Made by a program: the position numbers and the translations under genes. Of a DNA stretch of 64,000 nt, positions 5,951-45,015 are shown one piece after another. The stretch covers positions 1-64,000 of the forward strand of contig MEDY01000119.1 of NCBI GenBank assembly GCA_001724265.1. The letters are read 5' to 3'. A model generated the notes under the pieces. It saw only the letters and a program-made list of their open reading frames with translations, was not told where the DNA came from and did no database searches. How positions within the stretch are numbered: the first letter of the stretch is position 1; every line of letters starts with the position of its first letter. This DNA comes from Rhizaria sp. SCN 62-66. Lineage: Eukaryota.

Positions 5951-6032
5951 ATGGTAGTAGCAAAGTGGTTTACTGCGGGTGTCTTAAGAACATCTGTCCA
6001 TGACGTCGTGGGTTCGAACCCCACCTACCATA
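5951..6032 (+). tRNA. tRNA-Leu (anticodon UAA), intronless, long variable arm
   Basis: Acceptor stem ATGGTAG/CTACCAT with discriminator A; D arm containing AGTGG; anticodon stem GGTGT/ACATC with loop CT-TAA-GA; variable arm TGTC-CAT-GACG; T arm GTGGG-TTCGAAC-CCCAC. No encoded CCA. Confidence 0.93.
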
Positions 6033-22225: not shown

Positions 22226-25200
22226 TCAATTGAGGGGGAATGCGATCTTATAAAGCCTCCGTGCATGTGATAACAGCCACTGAACTCGAGACCTTCCACT
22301 GGCAGGCTCGCTTGGAGATGTCACGTAAAGCGACAGCGGGATGTTAATGCACATCATAATGAAGAGTGTAGAGACAGCAATTAAAGGTGACGGGTTAAGA
22401 ACGCTGTGTAACCACAACCGGGGACTCATATAAGACCATATAGCAGTCACGTGTTTGACGAACTCTTCAGCAGCGGTGCCCCGATCCCGCACAAATACAA
22501 GGTCAACAATATGATCGCGACTGGACGCCAACACCACCACCATGCCCGCCCAGTCGCCTCGCAGCAGATGGCCCAATAGCTTCAAGAAGAATAAAGCGAC
22601 GGATGCACCCAGATGTAGCGGCCACGCACACGGTTTGTAGATGGAACTGAGTTGGAGCAACTGAGGGATTGGCGCCGCGCCTTCAAGTGCAGTTGCAAGC
22701 GCGCCGCGCAGCGACAAAGTTGCGAGCAAGACCCAGACCGAAAGGACAAACGAGCCCACGTCGCGACACTCGGCGGCTCCTTGCATCGTGGCCCGGCGCA
22801 GCCACTGCCCCTGAGGCGTCTGCCCGACGAACATCAGCACGAACGCGATTAACGCCGTCGCCGCGCTCACGGCCAGCGTGGGCACCAGCGCGGCCGTGAC
22901 TGAGAGCGACGCCCAGCCCAACACCTTGGCGTGCAGGAGCAGCAGCGACGCGCCAATCGACACCAGCATAAACCACACGTTGTAGGCTTCTGTGACAAAG
23001 AGGCAGCTCGTGTCCGGTTCACCGACGCGCTTCCCAGGCGCCAGGGCTTCACGCCCGGCCAGCAGGCCCAGCGACATGTAGGCCACGGCGAAGACGCGCG
23101 CAGGCGTTGGGGTGAGGTGCCCCGACGCCAGCATGAGCTGCCCAAGCGCGACTGCACAGTATACCGTGGTCAGCAGCGATATGAGCAAGTGCCGCGCGTC
23201 AGGCTGCAGGTTGGCATAGAGTGTGAGTGTCAACGGCCCCATCAGCGGCCGCGCACGCTCGGTTGCCAGCGCGTGCAGAGCCGCCACGCGCACAGGCGCA
23301 AGTGCCGCCGCGAGTGTAGGCGTCCTCACGTGCGCAGTGTTGGCGTCCAGCGCGCTCGCCCCGGGCGGACCCAGGTGCGCGAGCAGCGCGGCCTCGTCCG
23401 CCGGCGCAACCATTGCGCGCCGCAGCGCGTAGACGCCTAAGTACATGGCGGGAGCCACGACGCCCACCACCGCCGCCGCGGCCGCAGCAGCCCACACGAG
23501 AGGCCACGGGAGAAAGTTCATAAGCGCACCTATGGCCGGAACAAAAACCATAAACTGAACGGGCCTCTCAAACGTATGCAGAAGCCATCGCTCGGGGTCA
23601 AAGCGCGGGTTGCTAAGCGCGTCACATGAGGTAAAAAGACTGGATACGCGCGAGAGCGCGCGCCGCGGGCCAAACACCGCCGCGCCAGGCATGACGTACG
23701 TGACCATGGCCTCCACGCCACCAGGCGCGAATTCAGCGCCGCCCGCGCCGGCGCGCGCCTGCACCTGCAGCTGCACCGCGCGGCGGGTCGCCTCGTCGGT
23801 CTCGGCGGCGCCTGTGACCGCGCGCGCAACGATGAACGGCGCGGCCGCACAAGCCAGCGGGCCACGTCCGCCGCCGCCGCCGCCGCGTGTGGTGCAGGGC
23901 ACGACCGTGGTCACGCGCGTCTCTAGGTGCGGCAGCCGGGGCACCCACAGCAGCGGCGCTGCGGCCGCGCCCACGCAGGCAGCGGACCTCAGCTCCAGCC
24001 CGCGCTGCGGCAACTGCGCCGCCGCCGCGCTGTTAGCCGCGCGGTCCGCGTCGTCACTGTGAGAGTCCAGCGCCGACGCCGACGCTGGCGCAGACACAGG
24101 CACAGGCGCAACCGCGCGCGCGTCAAGCGCGGCGTGCAGGCCGGACGGGCCCGCGCACGCGGCGAGCACCGGCCACGGCGCCGTACCCGGGCAGCCCAGC
24201 GGGCCCAGGCCCGGGCCCGCGGCCGCGGCGGCGGACGCTGCGGCGTCCTGAAGCGAGCGCGCAGCGGCCGCCACCGCCCGCGCGAGCGCAGCGCGGCGCC
24301 TCGCAGCAGCGCGGCGCGCGGCGGCTGGGGACAATGGGCGTCCCTTTGGCCTGGCGTAGGCAGCGTACACGTCATCGCTGTTGCTATCATCACTGCTGCT
24401 ATCATCGCTGCTGTTCGAGTCCGAGCCGTGGTCATCGCCGTCGCCGTCGCCGTCGCTGCCACGTTCGTCGTCGCTGGGGCCGTTGCGGTTGCTGCGACTG
24501 GGACTGTCGCTGCTGTCATTATCATCCCCGCTGCCGCTAGCGCCACTGCTTCCTCTGCTGGTGCTGTCGCCGCCGCTGCTGCTGGCCGCAAGCTCGTCGG
24601 CCTGCAGCAGCACGCCGCGCGTCTGGGCGGCGCGACCGAGCGTCACGCGCCCGTCCAGCACGCTCACCCAAGGCTGCCACAGCGCGGCCGCGGCGTCGCG
24701 CGCCGCCGCCCCGCGCAGCCGCTCCAGCGCGCACAACCGCTCCTGCGGCGGGCCTGCGCCCCACAGCCGCGCGGCCGCGCTGCTCGCGCCCGCGCCCGCG
24801 CCAGTGCCCGTGCCGGGGGTTGTCGCGGCGGCGACGGCTGCGCAGACCCAGGCCGGCAGCGCGACCTCCGCGCCATCATCACTGCTGCTGCTGCTGCTGC
24901 TGTCTTCGGAATCGTAGCCGTCGTCGTCGTCGTCGTCGTCGTCATCGTCGTCGTCGTCGTCATCATCATCGTCGTCGTCGTTTTCCGGCCGGGGCACAAG
25001 CCCCAGTCCCTCCTCCTCCTCACCCTGCAGGTTTGGCGGCGCCGGCCCCAGCTGCAAGTGCCGGCGCGCCGCGACGGCGGCCTCGCGCTGCGCCACGCGC
25101 CGCAGCGCCTCCCAGCGCCACTCTCGGAAGCGCACGATGGACCGCTCGCGCCGCAGCCGCGCAAGCCGCCGCTGCTGCGCGCACAGTAAAAGGGGAAGCA

Positions 25201-28200
25201 CTGCGAGCGCCGCGCTCACTTCCATGTCTTCGAGCTCGCTGCCGCTGCTGCTGGCGCGGCTGCAGTCTGAGTCGGCAGTCCTGCCACCAGGCCGGCTGCC
25301 GCTGAGGCGGGCGCCCCTCGCTCCGCCCGCTCGGGCCGCAGCTCCTGCGGCCTCGCCTTCGCTGCTCTCGCCGCTGCTGCTGCTGCTGCTGTTGCTGCTG
25401 CTACTGTTGCTGCTGCTGCTTCTGCTGTCCTCGTCACTGCCACCGCCACTGCCGCTGCCGCTATCGGCGCTGTCAGTGCTGCTGACGCGGGCGGGCCTGC
25501 GGGTCACCGCGCGCGCGAGGTAGTGGCGCGCCGTCGCCGGCCGCGGTGCCCTCACGAGCCCTGCGTCCACAGCGCGCGCCAGGAGCGGCGGCGCCGGCGC
25601 CGGCAAAGGAACACCTGCATGCGCGGGCGCAAGAGCCGGCGCGAGCGCGTGGGGCGCGACGTCGGCAAACAGCGTCTCCAGCACGCCGGGCAGCGACGGC
25701 GCGGCGTGGATGTAGCGCCGCTGGCCCGCGCGCGCGGCGCTGTGACGCAGCCCCCAACGGTCGTCGCCGCGCCGCGCCCGCCGCGCCGCGCGCGCCCGCC
25801 GCGCCGCAGCTCGCTGTCGCGCTGAGCCAATCAGAGCGCGACCGTGAGTGTCATCATCATCGTCGTCATCATCATCATCGTCGTCGTCGTCGTCGGTGCT
25901 TTCATCATCGTCGCTATTCTCCCCGTCGCTGCCACTGTCACGATCGATGCCATTGCCGACGTCATCGCCACTACCACTACTACTGCTGCTGCTGCTGCTG
26001 CTGTCAGTGTCGCTCGAATTTCCGGCAAGCCTTTGACCATCATCATCATCGTCATCGTCATCATCATCATCATCGTCATCGTCGTCGTCGTCGTCGTCGC
26101 CGCTCCCTCGCCTGGCGCCATTCGCAGCGTGCAGGTCGAGCGGGCTCTGCTCCTGCAGCAGCGCGCCCAGCGCCGCGGCGGGTGACAGCACCGCATCGCT
26201 CGCAGGCGCGGCCCGCAGGCGCGCCAGCGCGGCGGCCTCGCTCCGCGTCAGCAGCGACCGGCCCCGCGGCGCTGCCTTGCTGTCGCCGTCGCCGTCGCCG
26301 CCGTCGGCGTCAGCGTAAGGGTCCGCGTCCGCGTCTGCGTCACCATCGCGGGCGCTCTGGCTTCCATCTCGCTCAACGCGGCCAGCAGTCGCGTTGCGCG
26401 TGTCTCCAGTAGGTGCGTCTCCAGCAACGGAAGCAGCAGCAGCAGTCGCAGAAAAGAGAGGAAGGTAAAGCTCCGCCGCGCTCGCAGTGACGGTGACGCC
26501 GCCGCCCATCGCCTTCGCTCTCCGCGCGCGCGCTGGCGTCCTCCCTTCGGCGCAGCGCCGCAGCAGTGCGCGTTCAAAGTCCTCTTCCAGCGGCGCGCCG
26601 CGCGCAATGGTGGCGAGCTCGGCCGTAGTCATGGCACCGAACCGGATCAGCGGCAGCAGGTCGTGCAGCTCGAGGCGCACCAGCGCGGGGTCCGTGTCGT
26701 CGAGCCCGTACGCGCGTAGGCGGAAGCGGCCCCAGCGCACCACGGCCTGGAACAGCGCGAACTCGCTCCCGCAGTTGAGCTCGCTGGAGCGCAGGAAGCG
26801 CTTCAGCGCGGCGCGCGGCAGCGCCAGGAACAGCGGCTGCGCCATCGCCGTCCCGAAGCAAGCGAGCGCGAACGAGTGGTTGTTCTGCAGCGCAGCGCGG
26901 ACAGCAGCGGCCTCCGCAGCCGAGTGCGGGCACTCAAAAGCCAGCTCACAGGTCTCGTGCTGGGTCTCGCGCCAAGTGGCCCAGTCGAGCGCTCTCCGCA
27001 TAAGCCGCACTAGCCGCTTCAGGTGCCGGCCCCCACCTGGCGCGGCGCTAAAGTTACCGCCGTCGCCGTCGTCATCGTCGTCGTCGTCATCGTCGTCGTC
27101 GTCATCGTCATCGCTGTCGCTGACGAGTCGAGTGCGGGCGTCGCGGTGGATTTGGCGCGTGTAGGGACTGTGGCGCAGCGCGGGCAGCGTCAGCGCAGGG
27201 AACGACCGCGGTGGCCGCAGGGCTGCCAAGACGGCCCTCGTCGCGTCCGCCGCGGCGACAAGCGACTCTGCGGTCGCTAGCGCCTCTGCAGTCGACTGCA
27301 CCTCCGCGAGCTGCGTGTCTGGGGTCAACTGCGCGGCCCTGGCGCGCAACGCAGAGGCTCTTCTGATAAGGCTGGCAGGGGCGGCGACAGCTGTGTCATC
27401 GCCGCTTCCAGAGTCAGAGTTAGCTTCAGAGTCAGAGTCACCGTCGTCGCTGTCGTCGCCGTCGTCGCTGTCAGCGCGGCTGTCCGAGTCAGCGTCAGCG
27501 TCGACCTCGGTCACGGCGGCCACGGCCACGGCGGCCGCGGCGGCCGGATCCAGTGAGCCAACCAGCGCGGCCAACACGACGTCAGCCCCGCGGCCCACCG
27601 CCGTCGCCGCCGCGATCTCCGCTGCCGCCGAGGACGCGGCGGGCGCAGGGTCTCGCAGCGCGGGCGCGTACAGGTCCCGGTCGTAGTCGTCGCAGCGTGT
27701 ACAGACGCTGCAGCCCTTTTCGTTGTTGACATCGGCAACGCAAAAGCAGCCCTTGGCCGCGCCCACGCGCGCGCTGCACACGGGACACGAGCCGCACGCG
27801 TAGAGCCGCGCGCGGCGCGCCGGCGGCGGCTGCTCGCCTCGCGCGGCGGCCTCCGCAGCCGCGGCCGCCCATGTCACGGGCCGCCGCGCCGGGTTGGGGG
27901 CCATTGCCGGCGCGGGGCCGACAAACGCGGGGGCAATAAGCGCGGCGACCGGTACTGCGGCGGGACACGCGCTGCCGGCGTCGCTGCTGCAGCTGCAGCG
28001 ATGGAAACTGTCCGACGCAGCAGCAAGCGTGGAGTCGTCGTCGTCGCCGCTGTCCTCGTCACTGCCGCTGTCACTGTTGGCGTCGCTGTCGTCACTGTAG
28101 TCGTCGCTGTCGTCGTCGCCGTCAGTGTCGCTGTCGGAGACCAGGGCGAGCAGCAGCAGCGGGGCCGGGGGGCCCAGCGCCGGCGCCACGAGCGCGGCGA

Positions 28201-29449
28201 GAGGCGCCGCGGGGCCGGGCAACCCCAGCTGTGGCAGCCGCGCCTCCGCCTCTGCCTCAGCCTCAGCATACGCTGCAGTCGCACTTGGGTTTGCGTTCAT
28301 CTTGACGTTGGCATTGGCCGCAGAACCAAGACCGAGACCGAGCCTGAGCGCCAGCGCCGGCAAGAACCCCAGGCCGGAAGCCAGGGCGCTCGCTGCGCAC
28401 CGCACAATCCCCAGCGCGCCCCCGCCGTCGCCGTCTTTGACGACGCTGCCGTTGGAGCCGGGGCCAGGGCCGGGGCGGGGGCTCGCGAGAGCGCCGGCTG
28501 GGGCGCCGGCGGGAGCGACAAAATCGAGCAGCACGGTGTCGGGGTGCAGCGCCAGCAGCCGCAGCGCGCGGAGGGCCGCGGCAGGCAGCGCCGCATCGGT
28601 CAGCGCGCGCAGGTAGAGAGACAGCGCTAGCCCGCCGCGGGCGCTAGCGGCGCGCGCGGGCGCGAACGGCGCCGGCAGCAGCTGCGCGGGCAAAGGGGCG
28701 GGAGCTGTCGCCGGAGCGGGTCCGGCCGAGAGGAAGACGCGGGCGAGCTCGCTGTCGCTCATGTTGTCAACGATATTCGTGTTCGCCACAGCGCTTACGG
28801 TCGCAGCCGTATCGACCCGGTCCTGTCCTCGTCCCCATCTCTGTCCCCCGTGCGCCTGTCCTTTCTTCGGCTTTCGTCGCCACCCACGGCGACCCTGACT
28901 CAGACTCTGCTGCTGTCGCTGCCGCTACGCCGCGGCCGCGCGCGTCCAGCGGTAGAGCGTCTCGTATGCGTGGCTGCGCACGTGCGCGGGGTCCGTCAGC
29001 AGCGCGAGCCCCGGCGCGGCGCCCACAGCGGCGCCCGCCGCGCCGCTCTCCGCCCCCGTCGGTGCCGTCTCGGCGGCAAGCGCGCGCACCGTGTTGAGCG
29101 TGGGGCTTGTGGCCGCGCTGGGGAAGGAGAGCCGCATGCACACCTCGGCGGCGTCCGTGCGCCGGCCCGTCTTCGCGTCGCTGCATGACGAGGGCGCAAG
29201 GCCGGGGATGCTGTACAGCGAGTCGGGCTGTATCGTCGACGCCGCAGTGTAGAGCAGCGGCGCCGCAGGGACGAGGTCTGAGGACCAGGAGCCGCGCTCG
29301 GTGGAGGGTGGCGAGCGCGGGGAAGCCGGGAGTGCCACAGCGGCGGTGTCGAACAGTGACGGGGCATCTGACGTGTATGTTGGGTCAGAAGGCCACTCAA
29401 TAGCCTCTATAACCGTAATTTCAGGTTCAAGATGCAGGAGCTCGTCCAT
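22226..29449 (-). CDS. BACK-domain protein with Cys-rich segment, acidic tracts and multi-pass C-terminal membrane region, ~2407 aa if the in-frame TAG at 28925-28927 is read through
   Basis: Track ORFs 28925..29581 and 22226..28789 share a frame and are separated only by one TAG. BACK-like motif FLALPRAALKRFLRSSELNCGSEFALFQAVVRW...LLPLIRFGAMTTAEL (~26600-26860). Many hydrophobic helices at ~22290-23560. ATG at 29449, terminal TGA. Confidence 0.7.
26039..26098 (-). repeat. GAC/GAT trinucleotide tract encoding poly-Asp (similar tracts near 24920-24980, 25850-25890 and 27070-27110)
   Basis: Runs of tcg/tca units on the + strand, in frame as Asp in the minus-strand gene. Confidence 0.85.
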
Positions 29450-29929
29450 GCTGCGAGTTGGGGGTGAGGCAAGGAGGTGCCTGGTCGTCTGAAGATTTAG
29501 TTTTTCGCGATTGTCTGATGTGGAGGCAGAAGTAAGAACGTGAGGATCACAAATTGAGAAGAAAAATGACAAATATTTCATAAAAATTCGGCGTTAACAT
29601 CACTAACACGATTCTACGATCATTTCGGTGCAAGAAATGAACTTGAAAGTTGCGCGATTGATACGTCACCCTCCTGTCACTAGTCAACAAAAGCCATTTG
29701 TGGTGACACCGGGGTCTTTGGGTTATTTTCATTGATATAACGGACAGTTTGTATTTGTACAGCGGTTTAAGACGCATTTGAAAGTTTCATCAATAGATCT
29801 ATATAACTTCACACAATAGACACGAATCGCGCCTGTACACTGGCCCGCATCCCACAAACACTCCACACATCAATGTCACTCTCGACGATACGATATTCGT
29901 AACAACAGGGAGTCCAGACACAGTTGCCC

Positions 29930-31903
29930 TCATTTCCCCTCGCCCTCGGCCTTACCCCTACCCTTACCCTTGCCCACGTCCGTAGCCTGCTCGGCCGCGG
30001 CGGCGGCGTTGACGAGCGCGACGGCGCCGGGCGGAATGGACTGGAGCCTGCGCACGGCGCTCACCTGCTCGATCACGAACAGCGCCGTCACGAAGCTGAA
30101 GAGCACCGTCTGGAAGAAGAAGAAGTTGGCGTTGCCGGCCGCGCGCTCGGTCCAGAGCGACCACATAAAGGCGCCGACGCAGGCGCTTTGCGCGAGCGCG
30201 AAGAGCAGCGCGTGCGGGCGCCGCGCGCGGTGGGCGAGCAGCGGCAGATGCACCACCGCGCCGCAGAGCGCCACGGCCGTGTCCACCACCGTCGGGTACG
30301 GCTTGAACAGTGACGCCGCGGCGGCCGACGCCCAGAGCGCGAAGAGTGGCCAGCGTGGGAGGCGCGCGGCGAGCATGGCGGCGTAGACGGCAGCGTGGCC
30401 GTGGAACACGGCCGTAAAGAAGCCGCGGAAGCGCGGGAAGACCTGCAGTGCGAAGTACCACCACAGCCCAATCGAGGGCGTGGCGTCGCCAGCCACCAGC
30501 AGCGCGCCCCAGGCGCCGTCAGCCCAGCCCAGCCGCTGCAGCAGCCAGCGTGCGGCCGTCAGCCAGAGCGGCTCGCCGGGCGCGGGCGCGGGCAGCGCGG
30601 CCGCTGCGGCCGCCACGGGCGTCGTCAGTGCGCAGCACAACAGCGCACCCAGCGCGAGCGCGGCGCAGTAGACGGCCGCGAAAGCCAGGACCGCGGCGCG
30701 GGCGCGCGCGCGCGCGAGCGCGGCGGAGTCTGCGGCGGCGGCGCGGCGCAGCGGGGCGGCGGCGGCGAGCGCGCGGGCAACGAGCGCGAGCGCGGGCGCA
30801 GCGACCCACAGCGAGGGCTCCAGCAGCGTCGTGAGCGCGGCGAGCAGAGCGGCGACGCGCGGTCGCGCGCGTGAGGCGGCAAGCGCGGCGAGAGCGAGCA
30901 GCGCGTGGGGGACCACCGCCGTGGACACGGCCGCGGCGGCCAGCACCGAGAAGGGGTTCAGCAGCGGCAGCGCGAACACGAGCGAGGGCAGCCACGGCGG
31001 GGGCGCCACCAGACGCAGCTCCGACTCGGAGTCAACAGAGTCGGCGCCGACGCTCCGAGACTGCGCCGACGCCGCTAAATCGGCTGCAGCACTTGTGCCG
31101 GCCTTGGCGCAAATCGTAGTATCAGGAGCAGTATTGCGCTGGTTGTCGCCATCCCAGTCCTGCGCGCAGGCGGCGAAAGCCCGGACGGAGGCGGGCACCG
31201 GCACCGGCCGCGCGGCGTAGTAGCCCGTGAGCGCCGCCAGCGCGAGCGCGAGCGCCAGCTCGAAGGCGAACACGGTCGCCAGGTAGGGTAGCAGCGGCAG
31301 CGCGGCGCCGGGGCCCGCGAGCGGGACCGTGGGCAGCGTCGCGAGCGCGGGCGCGGGCGCGGCGGCGAGATGCGTGCTCGCGGCGTTGCCGGCCTCGAAG
31401 CGGCGCAGCAGCGTCGAGAGCGCGCGCGCGAAGTGGAAGGGCGCGGCGTACAGCGGTGAGTGGTGCAGCACGCCGCCCGCAAACGGCGAGCCTGCGGCGG
31501 CCGAGCCCGAGAGCGCGGCGGCCGAGGCCGCGTGGAAGCCCTCGTGGAGGCGCGCGACCGCGGTCGTGGGGCCCGCGAGCTCGACGCGGCCGCGCAGCGC
31601 GGCCGACAGCGGCGACAGCAGCAGCGCCACGCGCAGCGCGAGCGCCAGCAGTGACACCAGCAGCACGGTGCGCAGCGGCGGCAGGCTCGCAGTAAGCGGC
31701 GGCAGCGCGCGGAAGTGGGGCGGCGCCGCAGGCACGGGCACCGACACTGCAGCGGCGGGACGCTTCTGTTCAGCAGCGGACGCGGGCGCGGGCGCGGGCG
31801 TGGACGCAGAGACAGACTGTTGCGTAGCGGATGCAGCTGTGGCTGGAGTGGGGTCGACATTGCTGCGACGCATGCGTAGCGTCGCGGCCTCGTCAGAGCT
31901 CAT
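29930..31903 (-). CDS. PIGU: GPI transamidase subunit PIG-U/GAB1, 657 aa
   Basis: RVELAGPTT...RLHEG, SPFAGGVLHHSPL, LLNPFSVLA, TPSIGLWWYFALQVF, LFKPYPTVVD and AGNANFFF motifs; multi-pass hydrophobic; stop TGA. Confidence 0.92.
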   Translation of the reverse strand: MSSDEAATLRMRRSNVDPTPATAASATQQSVSASTPAPAPASAAEQKRPAAAVSVPVPAAPPHFRALPPLTASLPPLRTVLLVSLLALALRVALLLSPLSAALRGRVELAGPTTAVARLHEGFHAASAAALSGSAAAGSPFAGGVLHHSPLYAAPFHFARALSTLLRRFEAGNAASTHLAAAPAPALATLPTVPLAGPGAALPLLPYLATVFAFELALALALAALTGYYAARPVPVPASVRAFAACAQDWDGDNQRNTAPDTTICAKAGTSAAADLAASAQSRSVGADSVDSESELRLVAPPPWLPSLVFALPLLNPFSVLAAAAVSTAVVPHALLALAALAASRARPRVAALLAALTTLLEPSLWVAAPALALVARALAAAAPLRRAAAADSAALARARARAAVLAFAAVYCAALALGALLCCALTTPVAAAAAALPAPAPGEPLWLTAARWLLQRLGWADGAWGALLVAGDATPSIGLWWYFALQVFPRFRGFFTAVFHGHAAVYAAMLAARLPRWPLFALWASAAAASLFKPYPTVVDTAVALCGAVVHLPLLAHRARRPHALLFALAQSACVGAFMWSLWTERAAGNANFFFFQTVLFSFVTALFVIEQVSAVRRLQSIPPGAVALVNAAAAAEQATDVGKGKGRGKAEGEGK

Positions 31904-32393
31904 GGTCGCGGGAGCGAGAAGGCGCTTTGAAGAAGAATGGAATCGTCAGCTCCGAGTGCAAGCCAAGTACCTTCTGATGCCTACAGTGAGTGTTTTTGCA
32001 GGTTTTGAAAGTTTAATGGAGTAATTTAATATATAAAATTTCAGGTTAGCTCTATTTTTGCGGCAATACTAGTAAACAACGGATTCTGGAGTCTCAATTT
32101 CACTTGGGTCGTTCGAGTCACATCTTGCTGAAAGAGACCAACCACAACCAGTCGGGTGAGACTGACCGCGCCGCGGCTAGATTTGTGTGCTTTCAAGTTG
32201 GTTGCGAGAGAATAGAAGCACCCGTGTGTATTATGATGTTTGTTGGTCAATTTTCACACGCAAATAGATATATATTAATTCTCAAAGCAGTTAAGTACCA
32301 CAACGATACCCGCCTGCCAGGCCCCACTAAGTAGATACTCAAAACAACGACACTCGCACATATTGCTCTCAGCTCTCAGATCACGCATTGAGC

Positions 32394-34476
32394 TCAGAGC
32401 TTGGCGCCGAGCTTCTTCTTACTGGCAGCGGCGGCGGTGCGCTCCGCGATGACGGCGCGCGCGGCGGCGGTCTCCTGCGGCGTCTCGTAGGCCGCCCACG
32501 TGGGCTGCTGAGTGAGCGAGAGCACGCGCTCCCACGTCCGACCCTGCGGGTTGAGCGCAGAGGGTGAGGACGCCACGATGAGCTCCACAGGCGCCAGCAC
32601 CGAGCGGTTGTTCACGATTGCGGAGGAGAAGGCGGTGTAGCCGGCCATGACGGCGTGCACGGCGTTGTGCGCGATCGACAGGCAGTGGATCGAGTCCGCC
32701 GCCGAGGCCGGGATCGAGCGGATCATGTACGACGGGTCCACGACTGCAGACGGGAAAAGATGGTAGAAAAATGAGGATAGATTGAGATCATGTGAGCATA
32801 TATGAAGAAATTCATCCAAAAACAAATAACATTTCCCAAATACCAAACAAAAATAGAGACAACATATTGTTGTACGTACAGCGGATGGTGGACTCGATCT
32901 GGAAGGACTTAAAGTAGCTGGTGATGGCACTCTTGAGCAGCTCGCCGACCGAGTCGCCGGTCTGCGCCTCGACGGCGCCGTCGCCCGCGGCCGTGGCGGC
33001 CGTGTCGGCGCCGTCGCTGCCGCGCAGCGCCTCGGCGCTGGCCGCGGCGGCCTCCGCGGCGCCCGCGCGCAGAGGCAGCCCGGCGCCCTCCGCGACGACG
33101 ATGACGGCGTAGCCCTGGCGGCGCACGAGCTGGCGCACGTACTCGAGCACGCCCGTGCGGCCGTAGAGCCGGAAGGCCAGCTCGGGGATCAGACACAGAT
33201 CGGCGTCGCGCGCGGCCAGCACGGCGTGGGCTGCGATGTAGCCCGCGTGCTTGCCCATCAGCTGCACGATGCCGATGCCGTTGGGCGCGCACATCGACTC
33301 GACCTGGACAGACTCGATCGCGCGCGCGGCGACCTGCACCGCCGTCTCAAAGCCGAACGAGTTGTCGATAACGCCCACGTCGTTGTCGAGCGAGTTGGGG
33401 ATGCAGCACAGCGCGAGGCGCAGCGCCGGCCGGCGCGCGGCGGCGCGATGCAACTGCGCGGCCGCGCGGTGCGTGCCGTCGCCGCCGACGATATAGAGCT
33501 GCGTAACGCCGTAGACCTCGCAGGCGTTGAGGATGCGCTCGGGCTGGAAGCCGCCCTTGGCCGTGCCCAGGATGGAGCCGCCGCGGCCCGAGATGCCGCG
33601 CACCGAGTCGGGCGTGAGCGCTTCCCAGGGCTGCGACTCGCGCTCCCAGAAGCCGCGGAAGCCGTCGCGGATGCCGTACACGGTGTCAACGCCGTAGTTG
33701 TAGTACAGGCAGTTAAAGAGCTCCTCGACGACGTCGTTGTGACCCGGGCACAGCGAGCCGCACGTCACGATGGCCGCGCGCACCGTCGGCGCGTCGTACA
33801 CGATCTCCGCGCGCGGGCCCGCGCGCACGAAGCCCTTGGCGGCCTGGCTGCCGGCGCGCTGCGGGCCGGCGCCGGCGCCGCGGACAATGTCGAGCAGCAC
33901 GACCTCGTCGTCGCCGATAAACTGCGAGTACCGGATGCGCGATCCGCTCGCGGCCTCAGCGGCGGCGGCGGCGGCGGTGGCGGGCTCACTGTGTGCGGCC
34001 ACAGCAGCGGCAGCGGCAGTGCTGGCCGCGGCAGTGACGGCGGCGGCGGCCGCGGCGTCGCCGGCAATGATGGTGCCGGTGACGGGGTCGGCGGCGTCGC
34101 TGTTGTTGGTCAGCGCGCTGATGGCCTTGGCCATGGAGAGCGCGGAGCGCGCCTTCTTCGGGCTGCCCCCTGCGCCGCCCGCGGTGGCCGAGGCCGCGGC
34201 CGCGGCGGCGTCGGCGCCCGATGCGGCGTCGTCCACGGGCCCGCCGAAGGCGATCTTGGTGCGCGCAAAGACGTTGGGGTAGGTCTTGAGCGCCATGTCG
34301 GGGTAGAGATCTTGCATGCGCGGGACGTGGGCGACTGAGATCTCGGAGATGACGGCGCGCGTGGGCACGAACAGCCCGCTCTTGTCGCCGGACACGGCCG
34401 AGCGCTGGCGGGACGTAAACAGCGTCTCCGCGGCCTTCGGGTTCGCCTGGGAGCCCGGCACGGCGGTTGAATCCAT
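32394..34476 (-). CDS. PFK: 6-phosphofructokinase, plant/protist group X (ATP-type GGDG motif), 2 exons, ~648 aa, with divergent active-site motifs
   Basis: Exons 34476-32880 and 32743-32394; intron 32744-32879 (GTACGT...CTGCAG) restores STIR-F-VDPSYMIRS. Motifs FVRAGPR, AAIVTCGSLCPG, GGSILGT, VGGDGTHR, DNDV..ID.SFGFETAV, DLCLIPE and VVAEGAG; stop TGA. Confidence 0.92.
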
Positions 34477-35275
34477 CGCTGCGAGGCTGCGGATGGGAGC
34501 GGGGCGAGATAAGGCAATGATAGGGTGGAGCGTGAGAAGTCGTGTCTGGGGAGAGATTGAGGATACTGAGAAAGAAAACCCAGCTGCGCGTTGGAAAAAT
34601 AGGGATACATAACACATGGCGCTTATAGAGCACTAAGGGTGCGGTCTTAATTGAGTGTGGCGTGCATAGCGGCGAGAATAGATGATCAGAAACCTCGTGG
34701 GGCAAAACGGAACAGCTTTGGTTGATGCAAGCCATAATGATCGTCAGTGAAAAAATAAACACTGAAACCGATATCACCAAACAAAAATTCCTTCTACCTG
34801 TTGATACGATGCCATAAACTAACAGTTAAACCCCTCCTTGAACTGCGTTTTGATAGAAATCTTGGTCTCACTGTGTGTTGGGGGCTGGGCTCGATTGAGA
34901 TTTGTGGTGGCTTTGGGAGTTTGGGCTCAGTCAGGGCGCGACTGTGGGCGATTAATGTTAAGCCGCAAGAGGCGGTGCTGGGGCATTTTGGGCGATCAGA
35001 AATTCACCTCTAGCGGGACGTGCGAGTCGACATTTGCTTCCGTGCAATGCGGACATTATTTTAATCGCTTAGTTCTTTCATGCACAATTTATGTTGGCTT
35101 CTCTTGCGCTAGATTCATGCTGCTGTGGCCTCTGCAAGAAGGGTCCAGACTCACTCTCCACACCACCTTGTTCGATTATCTTATTCGCTTCCCACTCACC
35201 GATTCGTGTTTCCGCTCGTGTTATCTTGTCTCCTTTTGTTTTCCCCGTTGCGTTTCACTGTGTAGACCAGCCAGC

Positions 35276-35479
35276 ATGTCTGACACTGAGTTCATTGACC
35301 CCAAGAAGGTTGCCGAGGAGTCCTGCCGCGAGCCCTGCACCAAGCCCTTCACCATCTACCAGGAGTGCGCCAAGCGCATCGAGGGCAAGGAGGGCCAGCA
35401 CTGCACCGGCTTCGCCATGGACTACTGGAAGTGCGTCGACGCCTGCGCTACCCCCAAGTACTTCCACCTCCTCAAGTGA
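35276..35479 (+). CDS. QCR6: Cytochrome b-c1 complex subunit 6 (hinge protein), 67 aa
   Basis: MSDTEFIDPKKVAEESCREPC...YQECAKRI...HCTG...DYWKCVDACATPKYFHLLK shows the typical hinge Cys pattern; stop TGA. A pyrimidine-rich stretch ending TGTAG at 35265 may be the acceptor of a 5'UTR intron. Confidence 0.95.
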   Translation: MSDTEFIDPKKVAEESCREPCTKPFTIYQECAKRIEGKEGQHCTGFAMDYWKCVDACATPKYFHLLK

Positions 35480-36175
35480 GTGCCCCCAGGGTCGGGCGCC
35501 GGTCTCGCCGCCGCCCAACCTCGTCCCCGCGTTCGCGATCGCTCCAGTCTGACTGACTCTCCACACGACAGAGCACAGCAGATCAGAGCGATGGACGGAC
35601 AGGACCGGGCTGGACGGCGAGCGGCGTTGCCGGGTGGGCGGCGCCAGTCCTGCACACACGCGCGCGCGTCGCGGCGCTGTGTCACAACATCCCAGAGTGT
35701 CAACGAAGTGAACCCAACCGTTTCGTTGTCGATGCGTCACGAAAACATTTCTGGGCGACGACATAGTGACCGCACGTGCACGCGTGCTGTGTCTGTGCTG
35801 GTGCCTGCTGGCGGTGCCGTGCGAGCAGCCGGCGTTGAGGGCGCAAGCCTTATTTAAACGCCACGCTTTTTGTTTTTTTACTATCCACACATGCTTCTTT
35901 AGTTCGCGGCGCGTTGTTTCTGCCCTTTTGTCGGGACACCGCGCCTGCAGTGGGCGCGTTCTTAGCGGTGCGCTCTTCTGCGGCTATAAATACACATAAT
36001 ATTATTAATCAACACACTCCATTTAAGCAACTCCATGCGAGGACATCTAAATCATTGGTCTACTCTGTATTCGTTGTGCTACGTTATTCGTTAAGTTTCT
36101 CATTCTGTTCTCACGGCCCCTGCTGCTGTTGCTGCCCACATTCCCGGCCCAGGTCGTGATGACCGGCGACACCGG

Positions 36176-39100
36176 TCACCAGTTGGCCCCCGTGCGAGAG
36201 GCCACGAAGGCCCGCGCGCCCGCCCCCGGACTGGCCGGCCCGTCGCTCTGCTGCCACTGCTGCTGTTGCTGTTGCTGCGTCCCAGCTGCTCCGGGCGAGC
36301 CAGGGGCTGTGGCATCGCTAATAGATGCCAGCAACGCCTCTGCACCGGCACCGCTATTGTAGTTGTAGTTATTGTTGCTGCTGCTGTGGCCGCCCCAGGA
36401 GGGCCGGGTGGCCGCCGCGCGCGCGGACAGGAGCAGTGCAGCCGCGCCGCCCGCGCCGGGGCCCGCGCCTGGCAGCGGCGGCGGCGACGGGGAGCGGGAG
36501 TACGACGGTGCGGTGCTACTATAGGGCGCGGCGCTACTATAGGGCGCGGCGCCGCTATAGGGCGCAACGCTAGTGTAAGGCGCGGCGGGGGCGGCGAAAG
36601 GCGCCGCTGCGTAGCTGTGCGGGGGACTCGGCGCGGGCGACGAAGACTGCGGCGGCGACGGCGACTGAGGGGGCGAGTAGCTCTTCTGACGGCCCCAGTC
36701 CTGACGGCCCCAGTCGTTCGCTGCGCTGTGCCCGTGACTCGGCTTGGGCCGCTGCGGCTGCCACAGCTCATCCAGATTCGCAACAGGAGGCGGCGGCGAG
36801 TCATCGCGCTCACGCTCGCGGTCATGACCACGCTCACGATCACGGTCACGGTCATGCTCACGACCACCGCGCTGCTCCCGCTGGCGCAGGCCCTGGCCTT
36901 GGCGCTCGCGCTCGAAGTCGCGCTGCTCGCGGGCGCGCTGCTGCTGCTGAAGCTGCTCCCGGTAACTCATGCCCGCGCTGCCCTTGCCCAGCGAGCTCTT
37001 GTTGCCGTAGTAGCGCGCGCTATCGTCGGAGCCAGCGCCCGAGTCGGAGCCGGAGGGGCCGAGACTTGCGTCGGCGTCGCGCGCGCGGCTGCGAGCGCTG
37101 TAGATGCGGCCCGTCTCGTCCCCGCTGCCGTGGCTCTGCTCGGCAGGCTGGCTGGCGCCCTTGCTGTGGGCGGTGTTGTTGCTGTTGCTGTTGCTCTGTG
37201 GCGCGCGCCAGGAGAGGTCGCCCAGCCCCGGCAGCGCGCCGCCTGCGGCGTTGTTGCCGCGGTAGGTCGCGCGGGGGCCCGCGCCCAGCAGCATCTGCGG
37301 CAGCCGGCCCAGCTCCGGTCCCGGCGCGACCGTGGTATCCAGCCCCGCCGTCGCCGCCGTCGCGTCGTCGCCGAGGTCGTCGCCAAGGCCGTTGTCGACG
37401 TGGTAGCCGTTGTAGTCGTCGCCGTGACTCGTGGCGGCGGCCTGGTCGTCCTTGCTGACGTCCCAGCCCCAGCGCGGCACCGCGGGGCCCTCCGCGTTGC
37501 TCAGGTCGTGGCTCACGTAGGCGCTCGCGTTAGGGCCCGCAACCGCACCGGGGACCTGTACAGGGCTGCCGCGGCCGCCGACAGGGCCCGCGGCGGCCGC
37601 AGCGGGAGCCAGCCAGCGCGACAGCGCCGCGCGCGCGCTCTCGGGCAGCCCTGCGTCGAGAGCGGGGGCGACGTCGCCGAAGTGGCTCGCGCGCTGCGGG
37701 GTGCCGGCGCTGGAGAAGGCGCCCCCCGCGCTCGTGGCGGCGATGTAGGCCGCCGACGGCGAGTGCGGCTGCGGCTGCTGCGGGTAGAGCCGGCAGGGGC
37801 TGGGCTCGGCCGAGCCGTTGGCGTTGCGACCGTGGGCGTCGGGGAGGTCGGGCAGGCCGGAGGAGTCTTCGCCGTCGCTCCTGCTGCTGCTGATGTTGAC
37901 AGGCGCAAGAATAGCAGCGGCACTGCTTTTGTTGCTGTCGCCAACCGCGGCCGCAGCGGAGGCAGGTTGCGCGAAGCCGGCCTTGGCAGCGGCGAGCCTT
38001 CCCGCGGCGGCCTCGATCGCACGGACCAGCCGCCGCACCTCAGGGTCGGCCAGCTCGGCGGAAGTCAGGCGGCCCCACAGCGCACCCGACGCCACAGCCG
38101 CAGCCTCCGCGTCCGTGCCCGCGACGCCCCTGCCCTTGCCCTTGCCGTGGCCGTGGCCGCGACCGTGGGCGTGGGCGTAACCGTGGGTGCGAGCGGGCTG
38201 CGGCGAGGACGAAGGGGACTTGGACTCCTGCTCCTGCGCTTGCCCCGTCGCTCTCTGGCTCTGGCTCTGGCTCTGAGCAGCAGTGGCGCCGGCCGCGGCG
38301 GCGGTGACGGGCGTGGCGAGCACGGCCGCCGCGGGAGTGCTGAAAGGCGAGCCGCCCGTGGGGACCGTGCGGCGTTGCGGCGTCGTCGGCGCAGCGCCAG
38401 AGACGGGGCCCGGGGCCGGCGCGGACGCAGCGAGGCCCAGCTGCTGCTGCTGCTGCTGCTGTTGAGCCGAGTACTGGTACTGGTCGGGCTGCAGCGTCGC
38501 CCACAGGCGCGAGCCGCCGGGATTGAGGCCCTGTGCCTGCGCCTGCTGCTACTGCTGCTGCTGCTGACTGTCCGCGGCGTGGTCGTGGTCAGCGGGCAGT
38601 GCAAGCATGCCGGCGCGCCAGCCACTGGCGCTGGTGCCAGCGCCAGCGCTAGTGCCAACAGTCGTGGTCGCGGCGGCGTTGGCGTCACCAAGAGCTGCGG
38701 CCGCGGCGACGGGCAAGAGGGCAGCAGCGCCTGCAGCAGCAGCAGGTGAAGCGGTGGCGGGAGGCACGACTTCTTGCAGCGCCTGCAGCAGCGCGCGCAA
38801 CAGCGCCAGACTCTGTCCCTCAGCAGCAGCGCCAGCAGCAGCCGTGCCGCTAACAGTCGCAGGAGCCGCCGCCGCCGTCGCAGCGGACTCTGCCTCCGCC
38901 TCGGCCTCAGCAGCTTGCATCGAGCGCTCCAGGACCGCGGGCGGCACCGGTCCTGCCGTCGCGTTGAGGGCGGAGACGTCGTAATTGTTGGCATTGACGC
39001 TGTTGACGCTGACCGCGGAGATGTTAAGCTCTACAGGCGCTGCCGCTGCCGCAGGCGCAGCGCCAGCCGCGTCCGCCAGCGGCGCGTGCTCGGGCGGGGA

Positions 39101-41113
39101 GACCCCAACCGAGTGCGTGTGGTAGTAGTGGTGGAAGTGGTGATAGTGGTGCATGGCGGCTTTGCCGCCCGCCGTAGCCGCAGCAGCCGCCACAGGAGCA
39201 GTGCCATTGGCCGTCGCAGAGGGCGCAGGGCGATAAATGTGCGTCTGAATAAGGTTGCCTTGAGACTGCGCCTGCGTCTGTCCAAGTGCAGGCGCGCGCC
39301 CGCTCGCGCTCATGTTAGCGGCAGTGGGCGCGTTGTCGCCGTCGCCGTCGCCGCCCTCGGCGCCGCGGTCGCAGCGGGGCACCTTGCCGGGCGACGCGGC
39401 GGCGGAGGCAGGCCCGGAGTACGTCGAGGCGAGCGCGCCTGAGGAGGGCCCGGAGGAGACCGAGGTCGAGTGCTGCTGCGAGGGCGCCTGGGAGGGCGGC
39501 AGGTGCGAGTGCTGCTGTGAGGCCGGGAGCGAGGCTGGGAGCGAGGCCGGGAGAGACTGCGGCTGCGACCGCGGCTGCCGCGTCGCAGGGCCCGCCGCCG
39601 CCACGGCGGGCGGCCGCAGCGCCGCGGCCGACGCGGACGCCGCCACAGTCTGCTGTTGCTGTTGCTGTTGTGCTTGCGCTTGCGCGAGCGGGAGCGGGAG
39701 CGCGTGCCAGTGCGCGCGCGGCTGCTGCGAGCGGGGCTGGAACTGCGCAGCCTCGGCCGCCGCGCGCGCCGCCGCCGCTGACGGCAGGGGCTCATTCGCC
39801 TCAATCACAATGCCAACCTGCTGCTGCTGATGTTGCAGCGCGGGGTTGGAGCTGGAGAAGGCGGCCGAGCCCCCCGAGAGGAACAGCGCTTCCTCTTCGC
39901 CCAGCGCCAGCGCCGCGGCCTCGCCGGCGTTCGCGCGGCCGCTGCCGCTGCTGAGGCTCGCAGCGTCGGCGTCGGAGGCGGAGTCGGAGCTGGGGCTCTT
40001 ATCAGCCAAATTCTGCCGCTGCTGCTGATGCTGGTGGCGTTCAGGAGAGGGGGTCGGAGTCCAGGGCTCGTCTACCGGGGCCGGCAGCGGCTGTGGCTGC
40101 GGGCCAGTGCCAGTGTCAGTATCAAAGGCAGCGCCAGTGGCCGCGTCGGAGCCGAAGCCGAGTCCGGGGACTGAGCCTGGGACTGAGCCCAGGGCAAAGC
40201 CGGAGCCGGACACGGGGCCGGGCATCGACGCGCCGCCGGTGCTGGGGCTGGCAAAGCTGTGTGCGTTGCTGTTATGCGCGTTGAGGGCGGCGGCGGAGAA
40301 GGCCAGCGAACCCGAGGCCGCCGAGGCCAGCGCCAGCGCTGCGAAGCTGGGCTGCTGCGCCGCCGCGAAGCCGTCGCGCGAGGCGTTGTGGCTGTGCGCG
40401 CCGCCGCCGTACGCGTGGCCGAGGCCGTAGCCGCCGGCGTCGTCGAGGGCGTGCTCGGCCGACGACACGCGCAGGTAGCGAGGCTCCGGCGCCGGGACTA
40501 AGGCAGGGGCGGGGGCCGGCGCGGGCGCGGGCGCAGGACCGGCCAGGACCACGACGGCGGGGGCAGCGGCAACAGCAACGACAGGGGGAGTGCCAGGGGT
40601 AACAGCGACACGGCTGCCGCCCGCGCTAGGGCCCACCATCGCAGCAGCAGCAGCAGCAGCATCATCAGCATCGGCGTCAATGTCGGCTGCAGCGGCAACA
40701 GCGGCGGCGGCAGTCGTCGGGGAGTTGTCGTTCAGGTCTGCGGAGACGTTTTCGGGCGTGAGTTCGTCGCTGGCGTCGTCGAAGTCGAGGCGGTAGGCCG
40801 CCGTCTCGGTTGCGCCCAGCGCAGCAGGCAGAGGCGGCGGCGGCGGCGGCCCGTGCGCCGCGGCGTGCGCGGCCGCGGAGCGCGAGAAGCGCTCAATGGC
40901 AGACACGTCAACCACCGAGTCTAGCGGCCGCGGCGTCAGCGCGTGCAGCTCCATCACATGGTTGCGTGTCGAGCTCAGGTTCTGTGGGTGCTGTGCGCTA
41001 GGAGCGGCGACAGCTGAGGAGGAGTGTTGATAGTGTTGGTTTGGTAGTTGCTCAGAGATGTCAAAAGCATTGTTGTCGCCCCCAGTCAAGGCCAGATGCT
41101 CCGGCGCACTCAT
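36176..41113 (-). CDS. Large low-complexity (Ala/Gln/Pro/Ser) protein of unknown function, ~1645 aa if the in-frame TAG at 38549-38551 is read through
   Basis: Track ORFs 38549..41149 and 36176..38323 share a frame. The 225 nt between them are open, and the only interruption is one TAG inside a poly-CAG run. ATG at 41113, terminal TGA. Confidence 0.72.
36514..36566 (-). repeat. 18-nt tandem repeat (~3 copies) encoding APYS(S/G)A
   Basis: gctactatagggcgcggc-like units. Confidence 0.75.
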
Positions 41114-41917
41114 AAAAAGTACGTGGCAATGCGGTCGGTATGACAGCAAAGCGCCTGCCAGCTGGCTAGAAGCTGTTGGAGTTGGCGGGAGGGAAGAGAT
41201 ACCAGAGGGTTGCCAGCCGACTGACTGAGGTCACTGCACGAAAGATAAAGACGCACAGACAACTTTGTAAGATGCGTTATTAAAAATACTACAGGAATAC
41301 AAACAGTTTTACCCGAAACACACACTATCAGAACAAAGCACGAATAACTTTTTGAATTCTGAACGGTCCCAATTTGGCGCTCGAAACGAGACAACATCCA
41401 ATCTGGACGGGTTCGCAAAAAAGCTCGTCTCGAGAAGAAGAGGTTCGAAAAGTGCAACGACCATGTCGTCTGAAGCTGCTCGAAAATAGAGTTATTAAGA
41501 ACACACCATCGTCTGCTACGTGTATTTTAGTGCTCTTGAGTTTTTTTGTGTTATATTAAGTATTGCCCTTATTTAAGGCGGTATCACATTGCAACCATCG
41601 AGTCCAGGGCACGGGTTGTTGCACTGCCCATTCATGTTGCTAAACGGGATCAGGCCAGCGATGTTCGAGCGGTGCCGTGGGACTGTGTCCGCTCTATTTA
41701 CTCTGAACACGCCACGATACTGTTGACCATTTACTCTTTGAAACAAAACCCCTTGCTTTTCCTTCGAATCTCCGCTCACTTTGTCACGATCCACGCTCTT
41801 GTTCGCTCTGACCCCTCTCTGTCGTCACCTGCTTTCTCCTTGTGTCTGCTGCTGCAATTCTCCGCAGTTCATAGCTTTCACTTCGCGTGCTCCGCCGCTG
41901 TCCGTCGCCGCCGCTTG

Positions 41918-44900
41918 ATGTCTGACCCGTCTCGCGACCCGTTATCGGACGACAGCGCGTCCGCGCCGCCCTTCCTGCCTTTTACTTCGGACGAAGAGCC
42001 CTCCGACAGCAACAACAACAATGTGAGCCAGCAGCAGCAGCAGCAGCAGCCGCCGCAGCCGCCGCAGCGCCTGGCGTCGATGTCGCGCCCGCGGCGCATG
42101 TCGGTTATGCTCGTTGACGGCACAACTATTCACCCCGACGGGACCGACGGCGCCGACCTCGGCTCGCTGGCCGTGGCCTCGGCGGGCGGCTACGAGGACC
42201 TGCGGTCGCCCAGCTTCGACGAGTTCCTGCCGCCGCACCTGCAGTCGGGCTTCGCGGCCAGCCCCATGGGCCTGGACCTGGACCTGGACCTGGCTTCGGT
42301 CACGGCCGCGGGCGTCAGCGCCGTCGACGCGGGCCCTGACCCCTTCTCGCTGTTGCCCGGTCCCGCCGCCTTTGCTGCCGCCGCGGCTGCCGCCGCCGCC
42401 TCCGCCGCCGCGTTCCCCACGGCCGCCGGGTTCCCGCCCGGGCCCGGCTTCCCCTCACAGGCCGGGTTCCCGCCCGCCGCCGCGGCTGCCTTCCCCCCGA
42501 CCGTGCCTGCCTCCGACGCCGCCGCGACCGCTGCCACGGGCGCCGCGGGCTCTGGGCCCTTGTCCGCCGGCTCCGTGTCGGACGCCAGCGCCTTCTCCGC
42601 CGCCTACGCGGGCTCGGTCGCCAGCGCGGGCTCCGTGCTCAGCGCGGGCTCGGTGCCCATCGGCGTCGCGTTCCCTGCCGGCGTCGACATCTTCGCGCAG
42701 CCCCCGCTCGTCTCCGCGGGCGGCAGTCCCCTGCTGGCCGGCCTGAGCGGCGCTCCCGCCCCTGCGGCGGCCGCGGCGGCCGCGGCGGCCAGTCAGCCGG
42801 GCAGTCTGCAGGGCAGTCCGCTGGCGCCCGACGCCGCCGGCTTCCCGCCCACGGTCGCCCTGCCCCTGATGGCCGGCGTGCCCCTGGCCGGCGTGCCGCT
42901 GACCGGCGTGCCGCTGGGAGTGCCGATGTCGCTGTCGGCGACGCTGCCCGTGGGCGACATGGAGCTGGCCTACCCGGGAGTCGAGTTCCCCGAAACCGCG
43001 AACACGGTCGCCAACCTCGCCGCCGCCGCCGCTGCCGCTGCCGCCGCTTCCGAGGAGACCCACCCCGCGCTGGACCCCTACAGCCACCCCGAGGGCGCGC
43101 TGCTGCCGCCCGTGGCCCAGCCGCAGCCTGGCCCCTCGCCCAGCAGCATCACCGTCAGCCTCAGCAGCGCCGGCGGCGTCAGCTCCAGTTCCCACAGCTC
43201 CAGCGCCGCCGCCACTGCAGGCGGCGGCGGCGGCGGCGGCGGTTACGCCACCCGCCCCTCACGCGCGAGCTCCGTGGCGACTGCGCGCCCGGCCTCGCTG
43301 GCCGCGCATCCCGCCGCGCAGCCCGTGGACGACTTCGGCGACGGCGCCGCGGCCGGCGACGGCTACGGCGACGGCTACGGCGGCGGCTACGGCGATGCGG
43401 ACCCCTACGACGACGACGACTACGACGAGGAGGCCGCGGGACCCGACCCGCGCGCCGCGCTGGCCGCGGCGGCCGAGGCGGCGGACCTGGCCGCTGAGGC
43501 CGCGGCGGAGGAGGCGGAGGCCATCGCGGGCGGCGTGCGGCCGCGCGACCTGGACCCGGCGGCGCAGGTGGCCATCACCGAGGCTGTGGCCGCGGACCTG
43601 GCCGCCGCCAACATGGCACTGGCCGAAATGAAGAGCGCCGCGCAGGCCGCCGCGGCCGCAGCCGTGGCCGCGCAGGCCGCCCAGGCCGCGCAGGCGCAGG
43701 CGGAGGCGGAGGCCGCCGCCGAGGCCGCCGCTGCCGCCGCCGCGAAGGCCGAGGCGCAGGCGCAAGCCCTCGCCAACAGCAATACCGCCGCCGCGGCCTC
43801 AGTCGCCTCCGCGGCCGCCGCCGTGGCCTCCGCCGCGGCCGCGTCCGCCGCCGTGGCCGTGGCCGCGGTGTCGGGCTCCCCCGCGCGCGCCGCCTCGGCC
43901 GGCCTGCGGTCCGCCCTATCCAGCCCCAGCCCCGCCACCGCCACCGCGCCCGGCGCCGCACACACGCCCGCGGGCCGCGCCTCGGCCGGCGCGTCCCCCG
44001 CCGCGTCCGCCGCCGCCGGCGCGTCCCCGCCGCCTTCGTCCGCGGCGTCGACCGCGGCGTCGTCGTCGGCCCCCCCCGCTTTCCCGTTCGCGGTCCGCGG
44101 CGGCCCGTCGCGTGAACCCGAGGACGACTCGGTCGAGGCCATCGCCTTCCGCGCCGCGTACATGGCGCGTTCGCCGGAGGTGCTCCGCGCGGCGCACGCG
44201 CGCGCGGCGGCCCTGCGCGAGCAGCGCAAGGCGCAGCAGGCCAAGACCTTCGCGACTCTCGAAGAGGAGGCGCGGCGGCACTTCATTCAGCCGCTGGCGA
44301 CCAAGCCGCTGACGCTTGAGCGCTACAAGATGCTGCTGCGCGCCAAGAACAACTCGCTCGACTACTACCCCAGCTACAACTCGCTGTACCTCAAGGCGGC
44401 AGTGTCCGAGACGTGGGCCGCGAACCAGTGGCGCATCTTCTTTAAGTGGCTGCTCGCGTTGCTGGTTGGCGTCTGCGTCGGCTTCCTGGGTTTCGCGGCC
44501 ATCTTCGGCACGCGCGTGCTCAACGACATCAAGCTCGGCTGGGTGGGGTACTTCCTGCAGTCGGACAACTACTTCCTCGGCTGGCTCATCTTCACGGCCT
44601 GGAACGCGGCCTTCCTGTGCATCACGGCGGCCGTGATCAACTACCATTGCCCCATCTCGGCCTCGGGCTTGCCCGACGTGCGCGCCTTCCTCAACGGCGC
44701 CAATATCCCCACGCTCTTCACCTTCCGCGCGCTCTACTCCAAGGTCTTCATCACCGTGCTCTGCGTGGCGGCCTCGATGCCCATGGGCGTGCAGGGCCCG
44801 CTCATCCACACCGGCGCGCTCATCGGCGGCTGGCTCGCGCAGCACATGCGCACCGTAGTGCTGCGCCTGTGTTGCTGCGCGGGCCCGCGCGACGAGATCC

Positions 44901-44982
44901 GCGACGAGGAGGACCGACCCGTCTTCCCCTCGCACCACCCCTACTTGGACGAGCAGGACGTCCTCGCGCCGCGCTCCGCGCT

Positions 44983-45015
<33 letters not shown>

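Follow-up and report, generated by a model that had tools for sequence, protein, structure and literature searches.

An in-frame TAG within a glutamine tract and a second internal TAG in a rhizarian-like genome: leaky stop codons as one possible reading

Introduction

Does a TAG in the middle of a glutamine-coding tract end the gene, or is the tract translated across it? The question is raised by a long frame on the minus strand of the window, by which we mean the whole 64,000-nucleotide stretch of DNA analyzed in this study. The initial annotation of this site had put forward three readings, namely synonymy of TAG with CAG, a nonsense mutation, and leaky UAG-C readthrough, and all three still compete after the present analysis. 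The likelihoods attached below to each reading are judged odds, none of them computed.

Origin of the window

The window is eukaryotic and encodes Cbp3-like, BMT5-like, CLPTM1, PIG-U, PFK and CLC proteins. In a quick CLPTM1 tree, made from 83 of 123 proteins with SH-aLRT as the only support measure and with the window row flagged for unusual composition, the window protein falls into a 22-row group (support 100) together with Chlorarachnion, Lapot, Plasmodiophora and Ammonia. We read this one-gene tree as grouping the uncultured host with Rhizaria. The stretch was found, whole or in part, in 10 of the 12 runs listed, which are labeled as bioreactor, wastewater, sludge and microbial fuel cell metagenomes, and run X1 may be the source of the window.

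A metagenome scan with PFK gave 23 loci, one of them identical to the window and reaching neither of the TAG codons described below. Apart from locus L001, tetranucleotide likeness did not exceed 0.86 (145 and 120 loci), compared with 0.94-0.98 among 10-kb pieces of the window, and no further DNA of the organism was present in the viral contigs or prokaryote genomes scanned. No dispersed repeat that could serve to probe the whole genome is among the 20 repeat families listed. PFK and QCR6 sequence of a more distant relative is also present in runs X4 and X5, as seen at 33119-33640 and 35319-35340 (e.g., 13 differences in 305 nt).

The focal TAG lies within a continuous coding frame

The minus strand at the focal site reads AGT (CAG)5 TAG CAG CAG GCG CAG GCA CAG, with the glutamine tract at 38531..38566 and the TAG at 38549..38551. 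Re-reading the strand gave the same letters as the initial annotation, with TAG at 38551-38549 inside a polyglutamine tract. The TAG is codon 855 of an intronless frame (36176..41113, minus strand) of 1,645 codons including it, which starts at the ATG at 41113 and ends at the TGA at 36178-36176. Its immediate context is CAG TAG CAG, a Q-X-Q arrangement with C at position +4. The upstream part (38552..41113, minus strand) has 854 codons and equals the product if TAG terminates, and the downstream part (36176..38548, minus strand) has 790 codons plus the TGA. The first in-frame ATG 3' of the TAG is at 37294, 1,255 nt away. Both the open length and this distance agree with the earlier estimates of about 790 codons and about 1.25 kb.

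The encoded protein is of low complexity and rich in Ala, Gln, Pro and Ser, with a Gln content of 7.0%. The frame matches no Pfam family at E values up to 10. No homologues were found for the read-through frame among proteins of 904-2,879 residues, nor for residues 700-1100 among shorter proteins; these searches are weak because scoring in each was restricted to the 8,000 candidates best in shared words and the query is of low complexity. The ESM Atlas gave no usable match to the downstream part, and an exact look-up of the two halves in the protein collection returned none of seven upstream and none of three downstream start variants.

Based upon a codon model trained on the other genes of the window, the focal minus frame ranks first of the six frames in each 300-nt bin between 36301 and 41100. 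Its GC3 is 0.77 before the TAG, 0.87 over the 418 codons from the TAG to the ATG at 37294, and 0.82 thereafter. Eight 55-codon blocks 3' of the TAG have synonymous codon-choice scores of 0.07-0.54, compared with -0.19 to -0.91 for the 165 nt beyond the 12 modeled gene ends. The sequence 3' of the focal TAG is still, or was until very recently, a coding part of the same gene. An antisense frame of 884 codons (36095-38749, plus strand) was rejected as a real gene, as its codon score is below that of the minus frame throughout.

Contig pieces of the polyA run X5 lie on either side of the focal TAG, at 36905-37560 on the 3' side and at 39594-39872 and 40741-41102 on the 5' side; they can show neither one continuous transcript nor a transcript level. 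The first of these pieces includes 266 nt 5' of the first downstream ATG. X5 has zero depth over two intergenic bins and one of its pieces ends at the PFK splice donor, which suggests mRNA rather than DNA. At least two RNA variants are listed in the focal frame, both of them amino-acid changing, a number that does not allow selection to be tested.

A second internal TAG in a BACK-domain gene

A second in-frame TAG, new relative to the initial annotation, was found at 28925..28927 on the minus strand. It is codon 175 of a BACK-domain gene (22226..29449, minus strand; PF07707) of 2,407 codons with this one internal TAG, in the context GCG GCG TAG CGG CAG CGA CAG CAG CAG, again with C at +4. It divides a frame of 174 codons from one of 2,232 codons that holds the BACK domain match (26720..26920, minus strand; residues 844-910, E 2.3e-7). 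If it terminated translation, nine tenths of a conserved-domain protein would be removed.

The second TAG is genuine. It is spanned without a single differing letter by contigs of X3 (28600-31031) and X4 (28675-29085), from two different studies with runs dated 2017 and 2025; a contig of X8 starts 18 nt from the TAG and was excluded as bridging. Moreover, the database proteins P0126 and P0145, found on three and four contigs, terminate exactly at this codon.

The read-through N-terminal 1,100 residues gave 21 matches, of which the best nine were examined. In one relative, P0125, the upstream motif, an HPDT motif and the BACK domain are contained within one 985-residue frame, and its upstream motif is matched by the 174-residue part alone at E 4e-8. 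Another, P0132, aligns with the upstream part, is Gln-rich over a tract at the place of the second TAG and ends shortly afterwards. The linker at this place is variable, Gln-rich in P0132 and not in P0125. Judged by the continuous frame of P0125, the second TAG is internal to one gene. The two closest relatives share about 82% identity with the BACK region, and the Gln content of the whole gene is 2.2%. The 55 codons after the TAG show poor codon use, within the lowest 0.3% of 1,532 coding windows, and resemble an insertion relative to P0125; worse stretches exist elsewhere in the same gene. The poorest coding codon use of the window is in the transmembrane C-terminal part of this gene (22226-22760, minus strand). 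Relatives P0124, P0125, P0128 and P0132 are shortened at various places, perhaps by introns or by more in-frame stops; the contigs of three of them are 147-165 kb long.

Stop and glutamine codons across the window

Fourteen genes with a total of 17,543 codons were modeled, covering about 82% of the window. They contain 747 CAG, 81 CAA and the two internal TAG codons, so that TAG makes up 2 of 830 Gln-type codons (0.24%) and occurs in two of the 14 genes. No internal TAA or TGA and no frameshift was found in the 17,543 codons of these gene models. About 66 TAG would be expected from the TTG/CTG ratio of the window if TAG were an ordinary synonym of CAG; with only two beside 747 CAG and 81 CAA, ordinary full synonymy is unlikely. 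The synonymy proposed earlier gains from the second internal TAG and the lack of any clear terminal TAG, and loses by this shortfall.

The 12 complete gene models end in TGA (nine) or TAA (three). None of the 11 clear ends is TAG (nine TGA and two TAA), and one further end is ambiguous. The chance of such an absence is 0.04-0.09 at 20-25% TAG usage, a baseline that is assumed and is close to what TAG contributes, 19.6%, to the stop triplets of the window's non-coding DNA. The TAA of the CLC gene sits in a donor-like GTAAGC, and splicing of a 206-nt intron-like stretch may shift the stop to the TAG at 49120-49122 (48865-49122, plus strand).

The sole tRNA in the 64-kb window is a tRNA-Leu(TAA), and no suppressor tRNA was found there. 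This tRNA (5951-6032, plus strand) has an unusual sequence, its codon is used 16 times in 17,543, and its 3' end is partly duplicated just downstream, at about 6045-6090.

Leaky stop codons in a glutamine context

The reading that we favor, as a possible one that falls short of being probable, is that both TAGs are CAG-to-TAG changes tolerated through partial readthrough as glutamine under the standard code. The focal frame would be one gene, not two, in which a CAG within the glutamine tract mutated to TAG. The code would otherwise be standard, and UAG between Gln codons and followed by C would be a weak stop, at which a glutamine tRNA mispairing at the first codon position would insert Gln some of the time. 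The gene would then yield the truncated 854-residue product and a lesser amount of the 1,645-residue product, the latter sufficient for the allele to be tolerated, and the same leaky decoding would apply to the second TAG. That the codon was once CAG, that readthrough takes place at all and that Gln is the residue inserted are inferences.

This proposal has a precedent in Saccharomyces cerevisiae, where according to a preprint (PMC13192750) UAG or UAA between Gln codons of a Gln-rich mRNA allows 2-8% full-length protein; readthrough in the Q-X-Q context inserts Gln, one allele gave normal growth, and the mRNAs tested ranged from 7 to 20% Gln. The focal UAG resembles these cases in being flanked by CAG, with C at +4, and one change from a Gln codon, and its frame, with 7.0% Gln, stands at the low end of that range (PMC13192750). 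The second site shares the C at +4 and lacks the 5' Gln codon, in a gene of 2.2% Gln. The yeast alleles, as described there, are laboratory mutants with measured readthrough, whereas those of the window are natural alleles in a rhizarian, with readthrough proposed.

Both TAGs have C at +4 and Gln codons just 3', and a Gln-rich setting of this kind is less expected under random nonsense. Among the possible single-base nonsense changes in these genes, only 7-18% fall in a Gln-rich context and 4-9% in Q-X-Q. Note that context was the criterion by which the focal site was picked, which leaves the second site as the one independent test of it. The coding-like codon use 3' of the focal TAG, the polyA contig at 36905-37560, the BACK region with its approximately 82% identity to relatives, and a TAG count well short of that of a normal synonym also speak for leaky decoding. 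On the other side, readthrough of a few per cent may be insufficient for function. The second site is not Q-X-Q (GCG before, CGG after), lies in a gene poor in Gln and is followed by poor codon use. Leaky decoding leaves the absence of TAG from all 11 clear gene ends unexplained. Moreover, the focal codon was seen in one assembly, and readthrough is proposed here from the DNA letters.

Two other mechanisms were also considered. Programmed readthrough depends on a 3' signal, either the hexamer CARYYA or a stable structure close behind the stop, and was rejected. The hexamer after the focal TAG is CAGCAG, and no stable structure follows it (folding z +1.72 and -0.04); the values 3' of the second TAG are -0.60 and -1.76. 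Editing of A to I turns UAG into a Trp codon in filamentous fungi, and the Gln context of the two TAGs does not favor such editing.

If leaky decoding is right, the two genes would be natural cases of a Gln-context readthrough for which laboratory mutants have so far been the evidence, and could plausibly mark a first step to the commonest code change of eukaryotes.

Plain nonsense alleles or an incipient UAG-to-glutamine code

Two other readings, plain nonsense and a rare or incipient use of UAG as glutamine, are close rivals of leaky decoding. Under the first, which we hold to be rather unlikely, both TAGs terminate translation, and the genes were recently truncated or are dying in a near-clonal lineage with the downstream sequence undecayed. 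Possible single-base nonsense changes in these genes yield TAG in 70-75% of cases and come from CAG in 20-51%, and therefore both the identity of the codon and its Gln origin are expected under plain nonsense. Since contigs from different strains show 0-2 differing letters each, a young allele can be common to them. Moreover, the searches gave no homologue of the focal gene, which may be dispensable, codon use is poor in several stretches of the BACK gene, and the CLC gene may end in TAG if its intron-like stretch is spliced. In a more distant eukaryote (locus L003) the PFK orthologue (47% identity) ends in TAG. Plain nonsense fits poorly, however, with the pattern of lesions, in which two of 14 gene models are affected, both by TAG and both in Gln-rich surroundings, with no other lesion in 17,543 codons. 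It also has to account for a second TAG that persists unbroken in runs of 2017 and 2025 at the cost of nine tenths of a conserved-domain protein. Should these be plain nonsense alleles, or should one of the TAGs be an error, the finding would be ordinary.

The second rival holds that the lineage has given up UAG as a regular stop and reads it as Gln, with UAA and UGA still serving as stops, a proposal that we consider doubtful. It could come about through a tRNA-Gln(CUA) or a release factor that sees UAG poorly, and the codon would be very rare because the change is recent or the decoding poor. In such a case, which seems unlikely, the host would be a rhizarian early in UAG-to-glutamine reassignment, with UAG gone from gene ends and rare internally. 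The two internal TAGs without any internal TAA or TGA agree with this, as does the lack of TAG from the 11 clear ends although 19.6% of non-coding stop triplets are TAG. The relative P0125 is continuous across the second site and P0132 is Gln-rich at the aligned place. Across eukaryotes, TAG use rises with GC (PMC9348620). Reassignment confined to UAG has a precedent in a different rhizarian and in Iotanema (PMC5304391). On the other hand, neither TAG is in an alignable conserved column, the window is without a suppressor tRNA, one gene end may be TAG, and eleven ends are too few.

UAG codes for Gln, with UAA and UGA as stops, in Iotanema spirale, Hartmannula sinica and Trochilia petrani (PMC5304391, PMC11687900). 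Iotanema has 204 UAG in 126 genes (PMC5304391), and in two UAG=Gln ciliates UAG makes up 18.5% and 31.8% of Gln codons and occurs in about four fifths (78-84%) of genes (PMC11687900). The window resembles these ciliates in that only TAG is internal, the clear gene ends are TAA or TGA and the surroundings are rich in glutamine (PMC5304391, PMC11687900). UAA and UGA remain stops here as in the described codes, with none internal and both found at gene ends. The wide use of UAG as a Gln codon in those codes is absent from the window. There it is common and stands at conserved Gln columns, whereas here it occurs in two of 14 genes, in unalignable linkers, with TAG at 0.24% of Gln-type codons and two copies found against about 66 expected. 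An established UAG-to-glutamine reassignment does not fit.

A rhizarian with altered UAG, exLh, has UAG as Leu, with 384 UAG in 71 genes at conserved Leu positions (PMC5304391). It belongs to the same supergroup as the host, as far as the one-gene tree places the latter, and also has UAG uncoupled from UAA. In the window, unlike exLh, UAG is rare and both TAGs stand among Gln codons rather than at Leu positions; a UAG=Leu code was rejected on these grounds. The case of exLh was the sole code change in Rhizaria found in a literature coverage without most subscription journals. If UAG is truly read as Gln, this would be the first such code reported for Rhizaria in the literature found, and a living intermediate of codon capture. 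If UAG is gone from gene ends genome-wide, a common wastewater protist would allow a test of stop-codon capture, asking whether release-factor weakening or a new tRNA came first.

Assembly error and intron readings

The true focal codon could also be CAG, if the low-depth metagenome assembly introduced a consensus error or picked up a minor allele; we consider this improbable. The contigs of X3, X4, X5 and X8 were compared over 28600-41400, and none of the 32 pieces listed from these four runs spans the focal codon, so that the focal T lacks independent confirmation. In X3 the codon falls in a gap (38398-38767), where repeats cut contigs. The contigs of the organism in these runs have a depth of about 2-8, and neither half of the focal frame was returned from the protein collection with any of the seven upstream or three downstream start variants. 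However, the eight listed pieces of X3 (11,002 nt) have no letter differing from the window, and, provided that X3 is independent, the window thus looks to have a low error rate. The 40 variant rows listed include none at 38551. The second TAG, being confirmed, is untouched by this argument.

The remaining reading is that TAG is intronic, or that it ends one gene that is followed by a second in the same frame. Nine introns were modeled in the window, 113-200 nt long with GC 0.33-0.50; each has G at +5 and a CAG acceptor, and eight have at least 0.28 T in the last 40 nt. Frame-keeping GT..AG pairs (40-300 nt) that could remove the focal TAG number 47, of which 15 have G at +5, and 37 such candidates exist at the second TAG. 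The earlier statement that all nine local donors have G at +5 is right, while its use against an intron missed the upstream GT sites that share this feature. The conclusion that two genes or an intron are unlikely nevertheless stands, because GC is never below 0.70 in the 47 focal candidates and T never exceeds 0.15 over their final 40 nt, and candidates at both sites (GC of at least 0.62 at the second) have at most 0.17 T there. With candidates so unlike the local introns, a best second-site donor (28981) that would delete a motif kept by the relatives, and GC3 of 0.87 over the 418 codons from the focal TAG to the ATG at 37294, this reading is very improbable.

Other features of the window

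A frame of more than 4,500 codons (50305-64000, plus strand), with a 10-codon first exon and without a Pfam match, is still open at the end of the window and contains internal repeats of a short helical-looking motif. The Cbp3-like gene (2348-4533, minus strand) runs beyond its apparent stop, via an intron, into a second exon of 172 codons. In the CLC gene (41918-48868, plus strand) a low-complexity insertion several hundred residues long interrupts the membrane domain of the channel, and similar Ala/Gln-rich insertions mark most genes of the window.
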